From positions 1 through 7,415 of IMG/VR virus record IMGVR_UViG_2617270973_000012: 7,415 bases of DNA. One strand, given 5' to 3'. This stretch comes from a virus (Duplodnaviria > Heunggongvirae > Uroviricota > Caudoviricetes). The notes beneath the pieces were generated by a model. That model searched no databases, had not been told where the DNA came from, and saw nothing but the letters and a program-made list of their open reading frames with translations. The position numbers and the translations under genes are program-made. Positions 1 through 7,415 of this stretch are shown here, in pieces; position 1 is the stretch's first letter; every line of letters starts with the position of its first letter.

Positions 1-708
1 ATGTGGGTCAATAAGTATATTGACGATTGCACTGATGAGGATTTAAACGATCGTGACTTTATTGCATCAGTTGTTGACCGGGCTATTTTTCATTTCGCGA
101 TTAATAGTATATGTAATCTTGGGGATAATAAAGATGCAATGCCCATTGAACAATGTACTTTTGATGTAGAAACTAAGAATGACCTTCCCTCCACGGTTCA
201 GCTATTTTATGAGGAATCTAAGGATAATGAACCTTTAGCGAATATACATTTTCAAGCAATAGGTTCTGGTTTTTTAACGTTTGTTAATGCCTGCCAGGAA
301 CATGATGACAACAGCTTAAAATTATTTGCTTCGCTGTTAATTTCACTTTCATATTCTAGTGCCTACGCAGATTTATCAGAAACAGTGTATATTAATGAAA
401 ATAATGAGAGCTACCTGAAAGCTCAGTTTGAAAAATTATCTCAACGTGATATGAAGAAGTACCTGGGAGAGATGAAGCGTCTGGCTGATGGGGGAGAAAT
501 GAATTTTGATGGCTATCTGGATAAGATGTCACATCTGGTGAATGAAGGAACGCTCGATCCTGATATTTTAAGCAAAATGCGAGATGCTGCACCACAATTA
601 ATTAGCTTCGCGAAGTCGTTTGACCCAACCTCAAAGGAAGAGATTAAAATACTTACAGACACTTCTAAATTAATTTATGATTTGTTCGGGGTTAAATCGG
701 AGAAATAA
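1..708 (+). CDS. Hypothetical protein, 235 aa, AT-rich; possibly the 3' part of a longer gene cut by the window edge
   Basis: Open frame from ATG at position 1 to TAA at 706-708, followed by a hairpin plus T-run terminator. No motif I recognise. Composition is clearly AT-rich compared with the prophage core. Because the ORF begins exactly at the window edge, the true start may lie upstream. Confidence 0.55.
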   Translation: MWVNKYIDDCTDEDLNDRDFIASVVDRAIFHFAINSICNLGDNKDAMPIEQCTFDVETKNDLPSTVQLFYEESKDNEPLANIHFQAIGSGFLTFVNACQEHDDNSLKLFASLLISLSYSSAYADLSETVYINENNESYLKAQFEKLSQRDMKKYLGEMKRLADGGEMNFDGYLDKMSHLVNEGTLDPDILSKMRDAAPQLISFAKSFDPTSKEEIKILTDTSKLIYDLFGVKSEK

Positions 709-749
709 TATGTGAAGTTCTTCGATAGTATGGAAGGCATTATATAAAA

Positions 750-778
750 GGACCCAATATTTATTGGGTTCTTTTTTC
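750..778 (+). terminator. Rho-independent terminator after the 1-708 ORF
   Basis: GGACCCAATA / TATTGGGTTC imperfect inverted repeat (one mismatch or G-U pair) followed directly by TTTTTT (772-777), about 40 nt after the stop codon. Confidence 0.7.
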
Positions 779-1294
779 TCTATCAATGCTATTAGCAGGG
801 AGATATATCACCAGAGTTTAATGTGTGATTTTTTATTTATCGTCGAACCTGGATTGTTTATCATTGGCCTTAACAAAGTTAACGGCTAATAAGATTATTT
901 CCATCACTTCGTGAGAGCTTCATGCCTTGAGAGGATCTCAATTTTCTTTTGCAATGAGACAGGCGCTTCCTGTTGTTATGGTATAGTACCCCGCTATTGA
1001 GCCTCCTGAACAGTGATGCTGAATAACATAACCCCATGATATATCGATAAAATAATCTCTACATTTGAAAATGCACGGTAATTCTGAAATGCAAAAAATC
1101 AACCAAACCAGCGCAATGCCTGAAAAAACTGACGTTCACTGGAGTGGTCGGTTTAGCGTTGCACCAATGCTCGATAGGATGTATCGTTTTTGAAAAACAA
1201 TTGGTTATGTGTTTTGTGGGAGCCTATTGGGAACCTATCAAAAGATTTTTTGTCATAGCAGTGTGAGATGCAAAACACTGTGATGGTCGCTTTG

Positions 1295-1322
1295 TTGACA
1301 TCGCAACTTCTGCAGGTATAAT
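1295..1322 (+). promoter_or_regulatory. Near-consensus sigma70 promoter for the DUF4065/membrane-protein operon
   Basis: TTGACA at 1295-1300, a 16-nt spacer, then TATAAT at 1317-1322; both hexamers match consensus exactly. Predicted transcription start near 1329-1330, giving a roughly 150-nt leader before the ATG at 1480. Confidence 0.7.
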
Positions 1323-1479
1323 TCGCCACCAATTTGTAACCTGTGTATATGTACAGTTCTTTGCTGGTTATAAACACAGTGAATTGCTCTTGCAATCTTC
1401 CAAAATTTTTTTGTTCGTGCTAGGTTGAGATAACAGTGATGATACTGTTTGCACATTCAGTGTAATGAGGAGGGTGGTT

Positions 1480-1953
1480 ATGTACAGCCCGGTACAAATA
1501 GCCAATAAATTCATAACGTTGGGAAACCAACATCATAATCCTCTGACCCACATGCAACTGCAGAAGCTTACTTATATTGCACATGGTTACTATTTAGCAT
1601 TAACAGGTAAGCCTTTGCTCAATGAATGTGTCTCCGCGTGGAAGTACGGTCCAGTTATTCCTGGAATGTACGATGCTTTCAAAGATTATGGGAATAAACC
1701 TGTTACGAATGTAGCAGTAGCTCCTTTTGGTGGCATTGTTACTATGGATCCACAAGCAGAGAGCATTATAGGGGCTGTTTATAAATTTTACGGCTCGAAA
1801 AATGGAATTGAGTTATCAACTCTAACTCATATGCCTGGTACGCCTTGGTCACAAGCTTATAATGGTATTGGCTCGTCAATCATCTCAAATGATGCGATCA
1901 AGGCTTATTATCATGATTTATTGAATAACCGACAGCAATGTCAGGGCCTCTGA
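1480..1953 (+). CDS. Panacea-domain (DUF4065 / COG3600 GepA / SocA-like) protein, putative PanA-type antitoxin, 157 aa
   Basis: The segment LQKLTYIAHGYYLALTGKPLLNECVSAWKYGPVIPGMYDAF resembles the conserved core of DUF4065/Panacea proteins as I recall it. AGGAGG at 1468-1473 lies 6 nt upstream of ATG 1480. The ORF-track start at 1465 is an in-frame ATG sitting inside this ribosome-binding site, so I moved the start to 1480. Stop is TGA at 1951-1953. Confidence 0.6.
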   Translation: MYSPVQIANKFITLGNQHHNPLTHMQLQKLTYIAHGYYLALTGKPLLNECVSAWKYGPVIPGMYDAFKDYGNKPVTNVAVAPFGGIVTMDPQAESIIGAVYKFYGSKNGIELSTLTHMPGTPWSQAYNGIGSSIISNDAIKAYYHDLLNNRQQCQGL

Positions 1954-1975
1954 AAAAGTAATATTCAGGGATGAC

Positions 1976-2524
1976 ATGTCTCACAATTCAGATATCTATA
2001 AACTTATCGGAGCGGCCGCAGGTGTTGAAAATGGTCGCTCTGAAGCATCCTTAAACTCTACTGACAGTCAAGAACAGATTTTTAAATCTGCATTTGAGCC
2101 GTCTAATCATGAGAGCGACGATGATTCTTCTTCAGAAAATAAAGCTATTCTGGAGGCAGAAGAGTTTGGTTCTAATACTGGTGCATTGCATGAGTTTATG
2201 CAGCAGAACAGAATGGACAGTCTTCAAGCTCAGCTTGATATGCTCAAATCACAAGTACGGGATAAGATAGCTGACGCAACTGGTAAAGAAATAGACAATG
2301 AGCTTCGGACAAAAATGGCCTCATTCACGGTTTGGTTTATGTCGTGTTGGTGCTTATTCGTTGTCGCAATGTTTACATCGTTTCTTATTGCACATGAAGG
2401 AAAGCCTCCAGTTGAAGCGATCGTTGCATTACTAGGTACAAGTACAATTAGTATTGTTGGTTTGGTTGGTTTCGTTGTTAGTGGATTGTTCAAATCAAGA
2501 AAAGATAGTGATAAAGAAAAATAA
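1976..2524 (+). CDS. Membrane protein, 182 aa: acidic N-terminal region, coiled-coil-like middle, two C-terminal TM helices; candidate toxin/effector partner of the upstream gene
   Basis: Starts 22 nt after the upstream stop, with a weak GGGA ribosome-binding site. The N-terminus is rich in D/E/S (ESDDDSSSENKAILEAEEF). Two hydrophobic stretches, FTVWFMSCWCLFVVAMFTSFLIA and AIVALLGTSTISIVGLVGFVVSGLF, are followed by a basic tail KSRKDSDKEK. No family recognised. Confidence 0.6.
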   Translation: MSHNSDIYKLIGAAAGVENGRSEASLNSTDSQEQIFKSAFEPSNHESDDDSSSENKAILEAEEFGSNTGALHEFMQQNRMDSLQAQLDMLKSQVRDKIADATGKEIDNELRTKMASFTVWFMSCWCLFVVAMFTSFLIAHEGKPPVEAIVALLGTSTISIVGLVGFVVSGLFKSRKDSDKEK

Positions 2525-2544
2525 CCCGTACATATACGGGTTAT
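2521..2544. terminator. Bidirectional rho-independent terminator between convergent transcription units
   Basis: Perfect 10-bp inverted repeat ATAACCCGTA (2521-2530) / TACGGGTTAT (2535-2544) with loop CATA. An A-run lies upstream (a U-tract for minus-strand transcripts) and a T-rich stretch downstream. It overlaps the TAA stop of the plus-strand gene and sits 14 nt from the stop of the minus-strand PrtN-like gene. Confidence 0.75.
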
Positions 2545-2557
2545 CCATAGTTTTAGT

Positions 2558-2830
2558 TTAGTTATATTTTTGTTTTTCCGTTCTGACTTTTTCCCACTCA
2601 GCTCGCCCTTCTTCCCGTCTTTTGTCAATATATTCCGCAAGATCCTGAATGTTGATGCAGCGTTTTGCTTTTTGTGATGTACCGATGCGATATGTAGGTA
2701 CAGGCAACTTACAAGCGTTTGCTTTTGCTTCTGCTGTGGCTGGACTCATACCAAAGTATTTTTGACTAACTGCTGAGAGTTCAATGTTTGGGGTATTGAA
2801 TTCAGCCATCAGTAAAAACAAGGTGTTCAT
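2558..2830 (-). CDS. PrtN-family / excisionase-like small DNA-binding protein, 90 aa
   Basis: Small basic protein at the distal end of the leftward operon. Sequence MNTLFLLMAEFNTPNIELSAVSQKYFGMSPATAEAKANACKLPVPTYRIG resembles the pyocin-activator PrtN family, often annotated as phage excisionase. I moved the start from the ORF-track GTG at 2857 to ATG at 2828-2830, which has GGAG 6 nt upstream. Confidence 0.55.
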   Translation of the reverse strand: MNTLFLLMAEFNTPNIELSAVSQKYFGMSPATAEAKANACKLPVPTYRIGTSQKAKRCINIQDLAEYIDKRREEGRAEWEKVRTEKQKYN

Positions 2831-2866
2831 AATTTTCTCCATCAAAACCGGCTGCACCCGGGAAAA

Positions 2867-3439
2867 TCATAATTCTGTGCTGGTGGCAGGAATTAGTTTC
2901 TGCCAGATAGCGGAAACATATTTTGCCTGATGACGGGCATCAGCCAGGGCGTTGTGCCGTTCTCCATCGAAAGGCATGTCCATTTTTGGGTCGAATCCGA
3001 TGGAACGCCCAAGCGTAACGATCGTGCGTACATCGTGGTCATTCCAGTACGCCCACGGGCAGATTTGTCCTGCTCGCTCGTAAGCTCCACGTAAAATTAC
3101 GTTGTCGAAGGTGGCCCCGTTACCCCAGACTTTTAAATATTTTGTATTGTCTGCATGCTGATTAATGAAATGGCTCAGTTCAGAGAGTGCATCGCTGATC
3201 GACAAAGTATCATCAATACAGATTGCAGCTCGTGCTTCAGAGCTCTGTTTCAACCACCACAGGATGGTATCGCCGTCAGGTGTAGCTCCTTGCCCCATAG
3301 CACTTTCCAGGCTAACAACCGTATAGAATTCTTGTCCGATGTCTCCGGTTTCTGGAGTGAAGAACACCGCGCCAATGGAAACGATCGGTGCATCCTTATT
3401 TTTCCCCATCGTCTCAAGGTCGATCATTAAGTTATTCAT
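2867..3439 (-). CDS. DnaQ-like DEDDh 3'-5' exonuclease, phage-type, 190 aa
   Basis: Exo I motif IDLETMG, Exo II WGNGATFDNVIL and Exo III HNALADA (H-x4-D) are all present. GGAGG ribosome-binding site. The start ATG overlaps the stop of the upstream gene (TAATG). Confidence 0.7.
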   Translation of the reverse strand: MNNLMIDLETMGKNKDAPIVSIGAVFFTPETGDIGQEFYTVVSLESAMGQGATPDGDTILWWLKQSSEARAAICIDDTLSISDALSELSHFINQHADNTKYLKVWGNGATFDNVILRGAYERAGQICPWAYWNDHDVRTIVTLGRSIGFDPKMDMPFDGERHNALADARHQAKYVSAIWQKLIPATSTEL

Positions 3440-4263
3440 TACTTCACCTCCTGCGGCGGTTCCGGTAGCGGCATCCAGTGGGTTACTTTCAATGCCGGTT
3501 CTTCCCCATCGTCAGTAACTGCCCACCATTTGTTTCTCGAACAATCGTAATATCCTTCGAAGGTATCGCACTCAGTCCAGCCGTAAGACTTACCCCAACA
3601 CCAAACATATTGTTTATCGTTCGGCATTCGCTCACTACAGCTTATCCAACTATCCGGAGTTACCGGATAGTTGCGCATTGCGACCTTTAATGCCTCATAG
3701 AAGCAACCTTTCAGATTGTTGAACTGACGCCCATTAAGAGGACCGTGTTCAGTAAGCATGTTGCGTAATTTCCATGCCGCGTCGTTTACTTCGTTGGATG
3801 ACAGGGGAGGCAACTTGTAAGTTTGGCTTACAGGTTCGGCACCATGAAGCATGGCGCCGCTCCGCTCTATGCCATCCAGCGCGATTCGCAGTGCCTGAAT
3901 TGTGGTAGAGCTATCGTTTGGGGCTATTCCATATCGCTCGAATACAGCTAAATGGTTGCGCATAATCTCAGGCGTAAGCTCTTTGTAAGCATAAGCAAGA
4001 GGCTCTGATGCATTATCCGGCACAACCGACGCAGGCGCGGCAGCATAAACAGGAATAACGTCCGCTTGCTCTTTATTGCTTTCATCCGTTAAAGCCCAGA
4101 ATAATTTCCCGGCCGGATGTTTGAAAATATAAGCAACTGGATCTGCTTCCAGCGATGCCAGTGCAATTTCATAAGCACGGCGCTCAATATTGTCTCGAAC
4201 GTCCAAGCTGCCTATGCGCTCTTTGATTTCTTTAATCAGTTCTTTGTCGGTAAAATTGGTCAT
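3439..4263 (-). CDS. Phage protein with C-terminal DUF551-like domain, 274 aa
   Basis: The C-terminus is Trp/Cys-rich and ends VTHWMPLPEPP, typical of DUF551 phage proteins as I recall them. AAGGAG ribosome-binding site 6 nt upstream of ATG 4261-4263. N-terminal half not recognised. Confidence 0.5.
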   Translation of the reverse strand: MTNFTDKELIKEIKERIGSLDVRDNIERRAYEIALASLEADPVAYIFKHPAGKLFWALTDESNKEQADVIPVYAAAPASVVPDNASEPLAYAYKELTPEIMRNHLAVFERYGIAPNDSSTTIQALRIALDGIERSGAMLHGAEPVSQTYKLPPLSSNEVNDAAWKLRNMLTEHGPLNGRQFNNLKGCFYEALKVAMRNYPVTPDSWISCSERMPNDKQYVWCWGKSYGWTECDTFEGYYDCSRNKWWAVTDDGEEPALKVTHWMPLPEPPQEVK

Positions 4264-4273
4264 GTGTTACTCC

Positions 4274-4537
4274 TTAACCCGCAGTGCTTTCAACTGACGA
4301 GGGGAACAAAATCTTTTCATCAAATCCGGCATTCATATCATGGACAGCAACACACCAATCCATTGACGAACGATTATCAAGAGCCTCCATGATTTCATCC
4401 ATGCGGCGTAGGTCATACAGGTAAATATTTTTATCGCCAATGGTGTAAAAACCAATTTTTTTCGGTGATGGACAGCGATCAATAACGTCCTGTAATTCGT
4501 TCAACCATGCCTGTTCTTTTTTTGTCAAAGTTGCCAT
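4274..4537 (-). CDS. Hypothetical phage early protein, 87 aa
   Basis: ATG at 4535-4537 is preceded by AAGGA. The ORF-track extension to 4627 would overlap the upstream gene and has no ribosome-binding site. Stop TAA at 4274-4276. Confidence 0.5.
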   Translation of the reverse strand: MATLTKKEQAWLNELQDVIDRCPSPKKIGFYTIGDKNIYLYDLRRMDEIMEALDNRSSMDWCVAVHDMNAGFDEKILFPSSVESTAG

Positions 4538-4538
4538 A

Positions 4539-4757
4539 TCAGTTTTCCTTATACGGATTAATTTTATTGTGCAGTGTGTTGAACGACGCCCATACCACGT
4601 CGTTATACAATTCAATAACTGGCTCAATTATTTTCCCGATTGCCCAGACAAAAATTAGCGGGGATATCGGTATCATCAACACGATAAACAGAATGAGAAA
4701 CAGGAATTCTGTCGTTCTACTCTTTCGCGGATATTCTTTTCTGAATAATGTCGGCAC
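4539..4757 (-). CDS. Small single-TM membrane protein, 72 aa, GTG start
   Basis: AAGGAG lies 7 nt upstream of GTG 4755-4757. Hydrophobic helix FLFLILFIVLMIPISPLIFVWAIG. Stop-start spacing with neighbouring genes is 1-2 nt. Confidence 0.45.
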   Translation of the reverse strand: MPTLFRKEYPRKSRTTEFLFLILFIVLMIPISPLIFVWAIGKIIEPVIELYNDVVWASFNTLHNKINPYKEN

Positions 4758-4758
4758 A

Positions 4759-5091
4759 TCACTCTCCTTTGATGCGAATGCCAGCGACGCGTAGTGCGTG
4801 TTCTAAGTCAATCAGGCAAAGCCAACTGCCATTTTCTTTAGGTATCATGACATGTCGCTTATCAGCATTTATTGGGTGCCCATATCGAAGGTCGTAGCGA
4901 GTCGGTAATTGAACTTCCCTCGCTTCCAGTTCTGTAATGCGTTTGTTTTTAGCTTCTAGTTCATCCAGCAGCGCCAGCACAACCTGCGGTGTGACTTTCA
5001 TACGAAATGCCAGCAATTTTTGTGGTGTGGCTACTATTTTTATTGCTTCTGCCGCCTCACGCAGTGCCTGATAGTTAATTTTGGTTGTCAT
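4759..5091 (-). CDS. Hypothetical phage early protein, 110 aa, coiled-coil segment
   Basis: ATG 5089-5091 overlaps the upstream stop (ATGA). GAGGTGG ribosome-binding site. Heptad-like segment LLDELEAKNKRITELEAREVQL. Family not securely recognised. Confidence 0.5.
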   Translation of the reverse strand: MTTKINYQALREAAEAIKIVATPQKLLAFRMKVTPQVVLALLDELEAKNKRITELEAREVQLPTRYDLRYGHPINADKRHVMIPKENGSWLCLIDLEHALRVAGIRIKGE

Positions 5092-5966
5092 GCCACCACC
5101 TCTTCGAATTTCAACTCCAATTGATCACCCCAGATTTCACATGACTCTGAACACGAGCCGGTATCGAATCGCCTGGCTTGCACCATCGCCTGATACAAAT
5201 TTCTGTAGTCGCTGTCGGCATACATTCTGGCAATCCCGTCAAGACTCAGATGACCACGGTACATAACGTCTTTATCTGTCTTTCGGTGACCATCCCGGAC
5301 GTGTTTACCTGTAACCAGCTCATTAAAAACTCTCATCAGACCAGGTTCGTCTTTACATGCAAGCCCCAGCTTTTGCGTGGACTTTTTGATGCAGAAAACA
5401 CAGTTCCCGAGGTGCTCCGGGATTTGCAAATCAAAAGGTTGTTTATGCCACCACCGGATAACATCCGACTTATCAAAATCAGATAGCTCGGCAAGATACC
5501 GGACGCCTGATTTCGGTTTCAGCCTACGAGGTTCGTCTGCACGAATACCCAGCCATGTGATGTAATTCCCTCGTCCGAAATGGTCATCGCAGTATTTTGT
5601 GAAGGGGGTGAGTTTTAATCTGTCAGTGCAGAACGCGCCGCCGATGTATGGCGTGCCATATTTTTTTACCATGTCCATAAACGGTTTAAGCACCGGCATT
5701 CGCGTCTGAATATCCTTTGGTTCCCATTCCGTATAACCATTTGGCTGCCCAAGCTCTGGATTTATATCGACCTGCAACACAGTTAGCGGTATGCCCCAGA
5801 ACTTCACAACCTCCCGAATAAAGCGGTATGTCAGCGGATGTTCGCAACCGGTATCCATAAAGATGTAGCAGACGTTATTACCAGCCTTTCTTTGTTCTTC
5901 CATCAGGTGAACAAGATATGCAGATGTTCTCCCGCCAGAAAAACTAACTACATGAGTTATGCACAT
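5088..5966 (-). CDS. PAPS-reductase-family (PF01507-like) PP-loop protein, 292 aa
   Basis: PP-loop-like SFSGGRTS near the N-terminus. The segment IFMDTGCEHPLTYRFIREV parallels the CysH-family motif (TDTG...ETYRFI). Common in lambdoid prophage early regions. Confidence 0.7.
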   Translation of the reverse strand: MCITHVVSFSGGRTSAYLVHLMEEQRKAGNNVCYIFMDTGCEHPLTYRFIREVVKFWGIPLTVLQVDINPELGQPNGYTEWEPKDIQTRMPVLKPFMDMVKKYGTPYIGGAFCTDRLKLTPFTKYCDDHFGRGNYITWLGIRADEPRRLKPKSGVRYLAELSDFDKSDVIRWWHKQPFDLQIPEHLGNCVFCIKKSTQKLGLACKDEPGLMRVFNELVTGKHVRDGHRKTDKDVMYRGHLSLDGIARMYADSDYRNLYQAMVQARRFDTGSCSESCEIWGDQLELKFEEVVA

Positions 5967-6493
5967 TTGCGTAATTCCGATAACTCGTTGAAGCGTGCCA
6001 TAAACATCCCGTAGGCATGGCCCGGTGCCAGTGGAATCACGTTGAACATCTCTGTTGCCGGGATGCCTTCTAGTACAGGCCAGAAAGAGCCATCATCAAG
6101 CCCGAGATCGCGGCGTTCGGTTGCCAGCATGATGAGATCGGCATATTTCACGGGTGTACTCATAACCGGGGGTAACCCGTATTTCTCACGGATTACGGCG
6201 TCTATTTTTTCTTCCATCCGTTTATAGTCAGGAAGAAGGCGTTTCAGTGGAGCGGGAATATCCTGGCAATACGCTTCTGTTGCATCATGCATTAACGCTT
6301 CAAAAGCAAATTCCTGCGGCACCAGCTGGCTGCAAAGCACCGCATGCTGGGCGACACTGTAGAAGTGTGAAAGATGTCCTGCAAAGCGACAGATATTTGA
6401 AAGGGAAACCGCGATATCGTTAATAACGATGTCGTCTTTATTTATCTTGTCATAATAAAAATGCTTCCCGGAAAAAGTTTTAATAAATGACAT
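5957..6493 (-). CDS. yfdR: HD-domain phosphohydrolase (YfbR/YfdR-like 5'-deoxynucleotidase family), 178 aa
   Basis: His...His-Asp signature (SVAQHAV ... LMHDATEAY). Length and position next to a DUF2303 gene match CPS-53 yfdR as I recall it. I moved the start from the ORF-track GTG at 6520 to ATG 6491-6493, which has GGAG 6 nt upstream. Confidence 0.6.
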   Translation of the reverse strand: MSFIKTFSGKHFYYDKINKDDIVINDIAVSLSNICRFAGHLSHFYSVAQHAVLCSQLVPQEFAFEALMHDATEAYCQDIPAPLKRLLPDYKRMEEKIDAVIREKYGLPPVMSTPVKYADLIMLATERRDLGLDDGSFWPVLEGIPATEMFNVIPLAPGHAYGMFMARFNELSELRKCA

Positions 6494-6586
6494 TTTGTTC
6501 TCCACGTATATGCGCTGCACCGCGCTGAATTCTGGTAAAAGGAAGCCCTCACCATCCGGCGATTATTGAGTAAATTATGTTTCCAT

Positions 6587-6608
6587 AAATGCCCCCGCAG
6601 GGGCATTT
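6587..6608. other. Perfect 9-bp-stem hairpin in the intergenic region between the DUF2303 and HD genes
   Basis: AAATGCCCC (6587-6595), loop CGCA, GGGGCATTT (6600-6608). No clean U-tract on either strand, so a terminator role is uncertain. Confidence 0.4.
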
Positions 6609-6620
6609 GCAGTAATGAAA

Positions 6621-7415
6621 TCAGGCGGTGAAAGTACCAATAAAGGTTTCTACTTTGCTGTCTTTAAATTTCTCAACAAGCAGATCACGAAATTCGTTAG
6701 CCATTTCTTCCTGCACCGCTTCCAGCTGAATAATGCGCAGAACCAGTACAGGACGATCGCCAGTGATAATGCTGAGGCGTAATTTAAACGGACGTTCTTT
6801 CAGGCCTTCAAACGGAACGCATTTAAATTCAAATGCCACTGGCATAATGTCTTTGGTCTTCGCTTCGACAGACTCCATCAGAGAGCGTTTGCCGCTGAAG
6901 TCATTGTCTTCAAAATCAGCGGTCTGGTTCGCTTCAATTGTGATTTTACGGACCGCCGCAGCCGCTTTGGTTGCCTGAATGGCGTCACCATTAGCATCAA
7001 AGCCCACAAGGTAGTCGGCCCAGTCTTCAATCCATTCTGCCAGTGACTTCTGGGAGTTACGCTCGCCATTAACAGACAACAGAGCAGAAAACGGTGCTGT
7101 CTTTTTCAGTTTGAGGGTGGCGGTGTTATCTGCGTGACCTGGTTCATCAATAGTCCCCAGGTTAAGCACACTGACGGCTCGCATATTATCGGCATCGATA
7201 AAGCAGCGGGTGCCTTCATCTGCAAGATCTTTAGAATAACGGGTAAAGTCATCGATGCTGGCAGTGGAAAGCGCACCACGGAAACGGAAGCGATTTAAAT
7301 TAAATTTTTCCAGATCATGAATGCGGAAATTCTCAGGCAATGCCACAGCATCGGCACCAATCTTACTAATAATTTCATTAACACCCTGAGCAGAAATAAG
7401 GGCATGGATTTGATT
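6621..7415 (-). CDS. yfdQ: DUF2303-family protein (YfdQ-like), 5' end beyond the window
   Basis: I translated the minus-strand frame beyond the ORF-track GTG at 7346 and it stays open to the window edge (…[30 protein letters not shown]…). The resulting length of at least 264 aa is consistent with the roughly 274-aa YfdQ family. Stop at 6621. Confidence 0.55.

Follow-up and report, generated by a model that had tools for sequence, protein, structure and literature searches.

A prophage junction in dusA with a probably LexA-repressed, DNA-damage-inducible panA-panT moron

We analysed a 7,415-nt stretch of viral DNA (IMG/VR record IMGVR_UViG_2617270973_000012, positions 1 to 7,415), called the window throughout. 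Bases 781-1479, in front of the antitoxin gene panA, are a prophage junction in the E. coli gene dusA that leads into a panA-panT moron, probably repressed by LexA and inducible by DNA damage. This region is made up of four segments in series: the yjbM-dusA spacer, a dusA stub, an attP arm and the panA-panT control region. The moron itself (1237-2546) is self-contained and comprises promoter, operators, leader, panA, panT and terminator.

Putative LexA operators in the panA leader

The elements of the moron and the scores of its SOS boxes (HI, heterology index) are as follows.

1237-1294, plus strand: start of the moron upstream of the promoter, holding copy 1 (1273-1283) of an 11-bp motif
1295-1322, plus strand: sigma-70 promoter of panA-panT, with TTGACA at 1295-1300, a 16-nt spacer and TATAAT at 1317-1322
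1323-1331, plus strand: G+C-rich discriminator TCGCCACC and predicted start, the A at 1331 or else 1329-1330
1339-1358, no strand: SOS box 1, core CTGTGTATATGTACAG (1341-1356), exact CTGT-N8-ACAG, HI 8.0, at about +9 to +28 of the predicted start
1362-1381, no strand: SOS box 2, core CTGGTTATAAACACAG (1364-1379), HI 7.9, at about +32 to +51 of the predicted start
1432-1449, plus strand: small inverted repeat AACAGTG-ATGA-TACTGTT, the only 7-pair helix in a four-sequence consensus, its pairs mostly invariant
1443-1462, no strand: SOS box 3, core CTGTTTGCACATTCAG (1445-1460), HI 9.03, at about +113 to +132, with 4 nt between its end and the Shine-Dalgarno sequence
1467-1473, plus strand: Shine-Dalgarno sequence GAGGAGG of panA, 6 nt 5' of the ATG at 1480 and kept in all relatives
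1480-1953, plus strand: panA, coding for a Panacea-domain antitoxin of 157 aa (PF13274, E 5.9e-18, above the gathering score)
1976-2524, plus strand: panT, coding for a predicted membrane toxin of 182 aa, charged at the N-terminus and hydrophobic at the C-terminus
2519-2546, no strand: bidirectional terminator that closes the moron, detected on both strands

The sequence CTGT-N8-ACAG, with at most one mismatch, occurs three times in the 7415-bp window, and all three matches lie within 1341-1460. Box 2 reads CTGT-N8-CCAG on the opposite strand. The single mismatches of boxes 2 and 3 are of types known from proven boxes (CCAG, TCAG).

Boxes were scored with an HI matrix made from the 18 E. coli boxes listed in Table 4 of PMC3009722; the values are not on the published scale. 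Boxes 1-3 hold the top three scores of the window, the next score being 13.1. The known boxes reached 0.6-12.6 when each was left out in turn, and two proven boxes from outside the matrix scored 7.76 (lexA box 2) and 8.53 (uvrA/ssb box). In 223 kb of real sequence an HI of 9.1 or less was found for the uvrA/ssb box, two boxes ahead of a dinI-like prophage gene, the panAT boxes and one box in the cI open reading frame (ORF) of phage PhiR47_1. Random sequence with the composition of the region contained 30 matches of HI 9.05 or less in 5 Mb, that is, 0.0009 per 150 nt. The three leader elements can be regarded as putative LexA operators, since they score like proven boxes and are rare by chance.

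The promoter and its discriminator

A preliminary description of this DNA had noted a perfect TTGACA-16-TATAAT promoter about 185 bp upstream of the first gene and a 5' leader of roughly 150 nt. Both statements hold: from the start of the -35 hexamer to the panA ATG (1480) the distance is 185 nt, and a leader of about 149-150 nt is predicted. The promoter is the sole 12/12 match in 600-2700. A second promoter close to box 3 was sought by eye and with a promoter scan in 1395-1465, and no acceptable pair of -10 and -35 hexamers was found.

The discriminator TCGCCACC has a G+C content of 75%, the surrounding region one of 38%. Following TATAAT, the window (1317-1331) reads TCGCCACC-A, which agrees at 8 of 9 positions with the bases that follow the -10 hexamer in rrnB P1, GCGCCACC-A (PMC7822876). 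The diverged relatives L058, L070 and L071 described below have a G+C-rich discriminator, too. As the feature is kept in relatives, control by ppGpp and DksA is possible, and the panA promoter may be sensitive to both.

The panA-panT pair

The PanA protein of the window is identical to WP_000287252.1, the PanA of Shiga toxin-producing E. coli (STEC) O31, which is a validated antitoxin (Kurata et al. 2022, PMC8832971). PanAT of that strain is a genuine toxin-antitoxin system, the toxin of which, published under accession WP_000019185.1, depolarises the membrane through large pores (PMC8832971). The PanT of the window differs from WP_021563277.1 by one residue. panT adjoins panA in the same direction, which is the gene order expected for PanAT. 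The DNA of PhiR47_1 is 100% identical here and its genes are annotated as PanA and PanT; an Stx2k phage also has panA and panT, and in phage 1720a-02 the panAT region is present at 96% identity. Homology to 1237-1479 was not found elsewhere in E. coli; this sequence was met solely alongside panAT.

Conservation among PanA relatives

Diverged PanA relatives (61-76% identity) were obtained by a protein search and traced to their contigs; a scan of the contigs with PanA gave only relatives of at most 44% identity, unfit for footprinting. SOS boxes are situated 14-122 nt upstream of panA in seven of the diverged relatives (L054, L058, L061-63, L070, L071/72 and L077). Promoters and boxes are arranged as follows.

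L058 and L070, promoters: TTGACx-16-TATAAT with a G+C-rich discriminator, the boxes directly after the -10 hexamer
L058, boxes: HI 4.86 at -113 from the ATG, and HI 10.5, a weaker counterpart of box 2 at an equal distance
L070, boxes: HI 8.3 at -122 and HI 12.4 at -99, each as far from the ATG as its counterpart in the window
L071: same promoter type with a 17-nt spacer, and a box of HI 2.7 at the position of window box 3
L054, L077 and L061-63: no strong distal promoter, and a single box of HI 3.1-7.3 located 14-19 nt before the ATG

In L058, L070 and L071 the two hexamers recur at a spacing of 16 or 17 nt around an unrelated spacer sequence, which places the promoter above a chance match. 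Boxes homologous to box 3 have an HI of 2.7 in L071, 3.1-5.5 in L061-63, 5.3 in L077 and 7.3 in L054. The spacers of the SOS boxes differ among the relatives, and the surrounding DNA has diverged or the context is a different one. Because the boxes occur in different genomic contexts and with differing spacers, they appear to have been kept by selection and not by recent common descent alone. In close variants (95-100% identical) the box cores and the -35 and -10 hexamers are unchanged.

Several points weigh against LexA control of panAT. The boxes are of medium quality and none is among the strongest. The invariance in the close variants says little, as these are too similar. Box 3 has been lost in L058 and L070; located 113 nt past the predicted start, it may serve LexA as a roadblock only, or it may be a decaying relic. 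L059/60, a close relative, has no box of its own and lies behind a dinI gene having two boxes, and no SOS box is present in the Serratia and Providencia relatives of 59-60% identity. Furthermore, LexA binding, SOS induction and a biological purpose are read from the sequence, and the start site is a predicted one. No SOS box of their own was found for the Aeromonas and Vibrio relatives either.

The Serratia and Providencia relatives (L064-L069) carry panAT directly downstream of the antiterminator gene Q, the position that the Shiga toxin (Stx) genes have in Stx phages. This placement suggests that expression is coupled to induction by a different route. In Aeromonas caviae a 47% PanA relative is located divergently from an operon like umuD-umuC in a P2-like prophage (L075 1350-2474), and a strong SOS box adjoins umuD there.

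We considered whether the boxes could mainly be used by a phage protein. The prophage of VG888 (L001 31131-31457) and PhiR47_1 (L057 10964-11290) each code for a protein of 108 aa that shares 51% identity with residues 1-68 of LexA, with a similar recognition helix and no cleavage domain. Such a non-cleavable look-alike of the LexA DNA-binding domain could silence panAT during lytic growth, instead of or alongside LexA, and the 108-aa protein might occupy the SOS boxes at that stage. We think it unlikely that this is the main use of the boxes: the gene lies outside the window, and panAT with boxes occurs in unrelated contexts (L058, L071, L054) in which the look-alike gene was not seen. Host LexA is the constant factor. 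A phage repressor was rejected as the regulator, for the control region is at least 98% identical where the repressors of two prophages share 24% identity.

The repeated CAC-N-GTG motif

The preliminary description had pointed to an 11-bp motif with a CAC-N-GTG dyad, present on both sides of the promoter. Its coordinates are correct (AAACACTGTGA at 1273-1283 and AAACACAGTGA at 1372-1382), but the pair is no more than expected by chance. Seven pairs of 11-mers in 781-1479 agree at all or all but one position; for Markov surrogates the average is 4.4 pairs (sd 3.0), and seven or more are present in 21% of them. CACNGTG itself is found twice in the window, with 1.25 expected. L058, L070 and L071 do not have the upstream copy (1273-1283). 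Having failed the surrogate test and with its upstream copy unconserved, the repeat was dismissed as a significant feature. Nor can the upstream copy be taken for half of a LexA operator, as no site in 1255-1294 scores better than HI 24.

The second motif noted earlier, ATGTACAG, does occur both in the leader and at the start codon (1349-1356 and 1480-1487). Its leader copy makes up the right half of SOS box 1, and AAACACAGTGA that of box 2. The proposal that the repeats are operators for autoregulation was right in that there are operator sites flanking the leader; these are, however, putative LexA boxes of the type CTGT-N8-ACAG and not CAC-N-GTG dyads. A 24-codon upstream ORF beginning at the ATGTACAG of 1349 was also considered and rejected, as it has no Shine-Dalgarno sequence and its ATG is missing in L070.

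Autoregulation by PanA or a PanA-PanT complex through the CAC-N-GTG repeats, as in classical type II systems, would fit the position of the two copies, which bracket the promoter with a 3+3 dyad each, and their invariance in close variants. We nevertheless hold it to be very unlikely, contrary to what had been proposed for the Panacea protein. Besides occurring at chance frequency, the pair loses its upstream copy in L058, L070 and L071 even though the promoter is kept there, and the downstream one can be explained as half of box 2. Panacea is the only domain of PanA, and no DNA-binding domain (helix-turn-helix, ribbon-helix-helix, AbrB or Phd) is among its Pfam matches. Conserved palindromes overlapping the promoter, which together with such a domain characterise type II operons autoregulated by the antitoxin, are likewise missing. 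Ernits et al. (2023, PMC10440598) also argue that Panacea is probably not a transcriptional autoregulator.

Leader RNA structure

The leader had further been suspected of forming a regulatory structure. Folding does not bear this out: the z-score is -1.15, and 26 of 200 shuffled sequences fold equally well. The consensus fold of four lineages amounts to -6 kcal/mol only, with almost no covariation and one small hairpin, the inverted repeat at 1432-1449, the 3' arm of which overlaps box 3. In an Rfam scan of 600-2700 (E <= 1) no match was obtained in 781-1479; weak ones were located at the yjbM terminator and inside panA.

The SOS-induced toxin gene tisB has a long regulatory leader. Similarly, the 150-nt panAT leader could be a cis-regulatory RNA (an attenuator, a thermosensor or a target of a small RNA or RNase) that might supplement the operators. 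Its length is kept at about 130-157 nt in four lineages, and the block 1415-1449 with the small hairpin is conserved. On the other side stand the ordinary fold energy, the weak consensus and the lack of an Rfam match for the leader, so that we consider this quite unlikely. In L071 the 5' arm of the hairpin is changed and the LexA box is strong; conservation in this part may therefore stem from the box.

The junction in dusA

The upstream part of the window contains the following features.

1-708, plus strand: yjbM (DUF2713), chromosomal, Pfam PF10897 (E 4e-166), present in about 4300 E. coli genomes
746-775, plus strand: intrinsic terminator of yjbM, a 13-bp stem followed by a T run
776-1070, plus strand: yjbM-dusA spacer, chromosomal, 99.7-100% identical to genomes with an empty site, including an MG1655 derivative
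1071-1174, plus strand: orphan 5' fragment of dusA, 35 codons, the frame continuing into phage DNA up to a stop at 1191-1193
1167-1174, no strand: att core ATGCTCGA, the crossover region at the integrase-distal junction
1175-1236, no strand: phage attP arm with the direct repeats GGGAGCC (1218-1224) and GGGAACC (1229-1235)

The genome search covered 5,426 complete E. coli genomes. Matches were found in 4,307 of them, the majority over window 1-1174 alone and only 73 over the whole of 1-2600. In that majority the genes over 1-1174 are yjbM (DUF2713) and an intact dusA. The alignment with the MG1655 derivative shows complete identity up to base 1174, which is codon 35 of intact dusA, and is then lost. 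The native dusA promoter must be located within 776-1070, where we infer its presence. The equivalent dusA stub is annotated by PGAP as 'tRNA-dihydrouridine synthase, incomplete'.

The 700 bp had been described as free of any convincing ORF. A long ORF is indeed missing, but the 35-codon dusA pseudogene fragment is situated at 1071-1174. The suggestion that the upstream part could be a relic of an insertion junction proved correct, as it holds the 5' stub of dusA together with the att core and an attP arm of the phage. For a small RNA in 781-1290, also suggested earlier, we found no supporting evidence; the sequence is ordinary conserved chromosome of about 4300 E. coli genomes. The 235-aa yjbM of the window (1-708) is the distal portion of a longer DUF2713 gene (L001 19723-20708). 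That gene is complete in O157:H7, where it codes for 318 aa, and its annotation shows a frameshift in strains like K-12.

The other end of the prophage can be seen in VG888, which has the same left end. There, the far end of a prophage of about 39 kb consists of a tyrosine integrase gene beside a complete dusA, and this integrase-proximal dusA begins with about 100 bp of diverged sequence that comes from the phage. When the window junction, the empty attB of MG1655 and the integrase-proximal VG888 junction were aligned, ATGCTCGA proved to be the sole bases common to all three. The tyrosine integrase and the replacement dusA 5' end, which lie beyond the window limits, are present in VG888 and PhiR47_1. 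Integration specific for dusA at a short conserved core has been described (PMC4482086, PMC6328086); phage 1720a-02 is reported to have a 21-bp junction motif with a 7-base core (PMC6328086). Since these authors name the integrase-proximal junction attL, the junction in the window corresponds to their attR.

A sensitive search with 1175-1480 matched 742 genomes, 79 of them over the full length and the others over the first 61-62 bases, always beside the dusA stub. Other dusA prophages are identical through GGGAACC (1229-1235) and then continue with different cargo. On the integrase side the arm holds three further GGGARCC copies, one of them inverted, and in the 43-kb phage PhiR47_1 five of the eight copies are no more than about 240 bp away from attP. 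From this distribution we infer that the repeats are candidate arm-type sites of the integrase.

The slot between the attP arm and a PrtN-like gene (window 1237-2557; L004 4062-5098; L005 4063-5223) is a cargo hot spot. It is occupied by PanAT in the window, by another Panacea protein of 193 aa with a 153-aa partner in L005, and by two unrelated small ORFs in O157:H7 (L004). In the circular phage, attP is flanked by the PrtN-family gene (window 2558-2830, minus strand) and the far-end integrase gene (L003 14644-15741), and panAT sits between the PrtN-family gene and attP. Because the PrtN-family gene and the integrase gene are separated by attP in this way, early transcripts running leftward to the integrase gene would have to pass through panAT in antisense.

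No plus-strand terminator is predicted between 775 and 2521, so that the stranded dusA promoter may read through into panAT. One could go further and regard the promoter and the LexA-like sequences as inert leftovers of recombination, with panAT expressed by read-through from the dusA promoter only. The uninterrupted path from the dusA stub to panA and the varied cargo of a recombination hot spot would be in keeping with this. Against it, four lineages have conserved the hexamers and spacing of the 12/12 promoter, and seven lineages located outside dusA have SOS boxes as well, with a chance of about 1e-3 per 150 nt for each match. We find this explanation hardly credible.

Further SOS boxes were observed in the prophages. 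The box in the annotated cI repressor ORF of PhiR47_1 (L057 6512-6531, TACTGTATGTAAAAACAGTA) is very strong, with an HI of 2.09. The VG888 prophage has a match at the start of a DNA methyltransferase gene (L001 35050-35069, HI 5.26) and another upstream of a small hypothetical gene (L001 34630-34649, HI 8.57). At the prophage end opposite to panAT two strong boxes are located between the integrase gene and a dinI-like gene (L003 15742-15789; L057 41642-41689); with boxes at this end as well, both prophage ends would have LexA-controlled morons.

Discussion

The arrangement suggests the following course of events. A lambdoid prophage with a dusA-specific integrase inserted at codon 35 of dusA and left behind the native dusA promoter and the stub (781-1174), the 8-bp core and the attP arm (1175-1236). 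The consensus promoter at 1295-1322 would be strong by itself. In undamaged lysogens, dimers of host LexA on the tandem boxes (about +9 to +51) and on the box adjacent to the ribosome-binding site would repress it. Upon DNA damage, activated RecA would trigger the self-cleavage of LexA, and panA-panT would be transcribed with the leader of about 150 nt. PanA would then neutralise the pore-forming PanT through direct binding. As PanA acts in this way and has no DNA-binding domain, transcriptional control would be handed to the host SOS repressor.

A wider scheme can be drawn for the clade of stand-alone Panacea proteins, although we regard it as doubtful. Here the control over their own promoter that most antitoxins of type II have would have been passed to the host, and LexA (damage) and the discriminator resembling that of rrn P1 (growth state) would together gate PanT. 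Prophages in dusA, the Stx-converting phages included, would then set off a membrane-depolarising module upon SOS induction, for example for tuning lysis or aborting superinfection. The phage LexA mimic would silence the operon again later, and the distant relatives next to Q would arrive at the same timing in a different way.

LexA control would make DNA damage a concrete candidate trigger for a pore-forming toxin of E. coli prophages, including Stx2-converting phages. If true, it would also explain how the operon can be regulated despite an antitoxin lacking a DNA-binding domain. For annotation, what looks like a 700-bp non-coding gap at dusA becomes a readable prophage junction with stub, core, candidate integrase arm sites and cargo slot.

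Comparison with known systems

The junction is of an ordinary, well-understood kind. It shares with the elements carrying dusA-specific integrases (Farrugia et al. 2015, PMC4482086; 1720a-02, PMC6328086) the insertion about 100 bp into dusA, the short core at both junctions, the replacement dusA 5' end beside the integrase gene and the orphan stub at the far end. The junction does not differ from them in kind; for two details, the GGGARCC repeats of the arm and the cargo slot adjacent to it, no description was found.

With PanAT of STEC O31 (PMC8832971) the moron has in common the identical PanA, the bicistronic order panA-panT and a predicted membrane-targeting toxin. Inducible vectors were used in that work and in PMC10440598, and native regulation, LexA and SOS are unmentioned there; the layout of promoter and operators is an addition of the present analysis. 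Literature searches pairing Panacea, DUF4065, GepA or SocA with LexA gave no report. The SOS signature of the moron is clear and conserved and apparently undescribed.

The promoter resembles rrnB P1 in its 16-bp spacer, the TATAAT hexamer and a similar G+C-rich discriminator. It differs in having a consensus -35 hexamer, which is TTGTCA in rrnB P1, and in lacking an A+T-rich UP element upstream.

Toxin genes repressed by LexA in E. coli include tisB/istR-1, symE, hokE and dinQ, together with the type II systems yafNO and dinJ-yafQ. Like these, panA-panT has putative CTGT-N8-ACAG operators at a sigma-70 promoter before the toxin gene. It also resembles tisB in its predicted membrane-depolarising toxin and in the long leader of its mRNA. 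In contrast to SOS toxin genes such as tisB, the 182-aa PanT is countered by a Panacea-domain protein and not by an antisense RNA. Moreover, there are three boxes here, a tandem pair past the start and one at the ribosome-binding site, and the module is prophage cargo. istR2 is among the published E. coli LexA boxes (PMC3009722), and repression of higB by LexA is mentioned for higBA of Caulobacter (PMC6120978).

Tandem boxes downstream of the start are also a feature of the lexA gene, where the two boxes are 21 bp apart in L001. Finally, the cassette of promoter, SOS box, gene and terminator at a prophage end is shared with the LexA-controlled dinI-like morons of lambdoid and P2-like prophages (PMC7556043), with the difference that those carry an SOS modulator, whereas the cargo here is a toxin-antitoxin pair.

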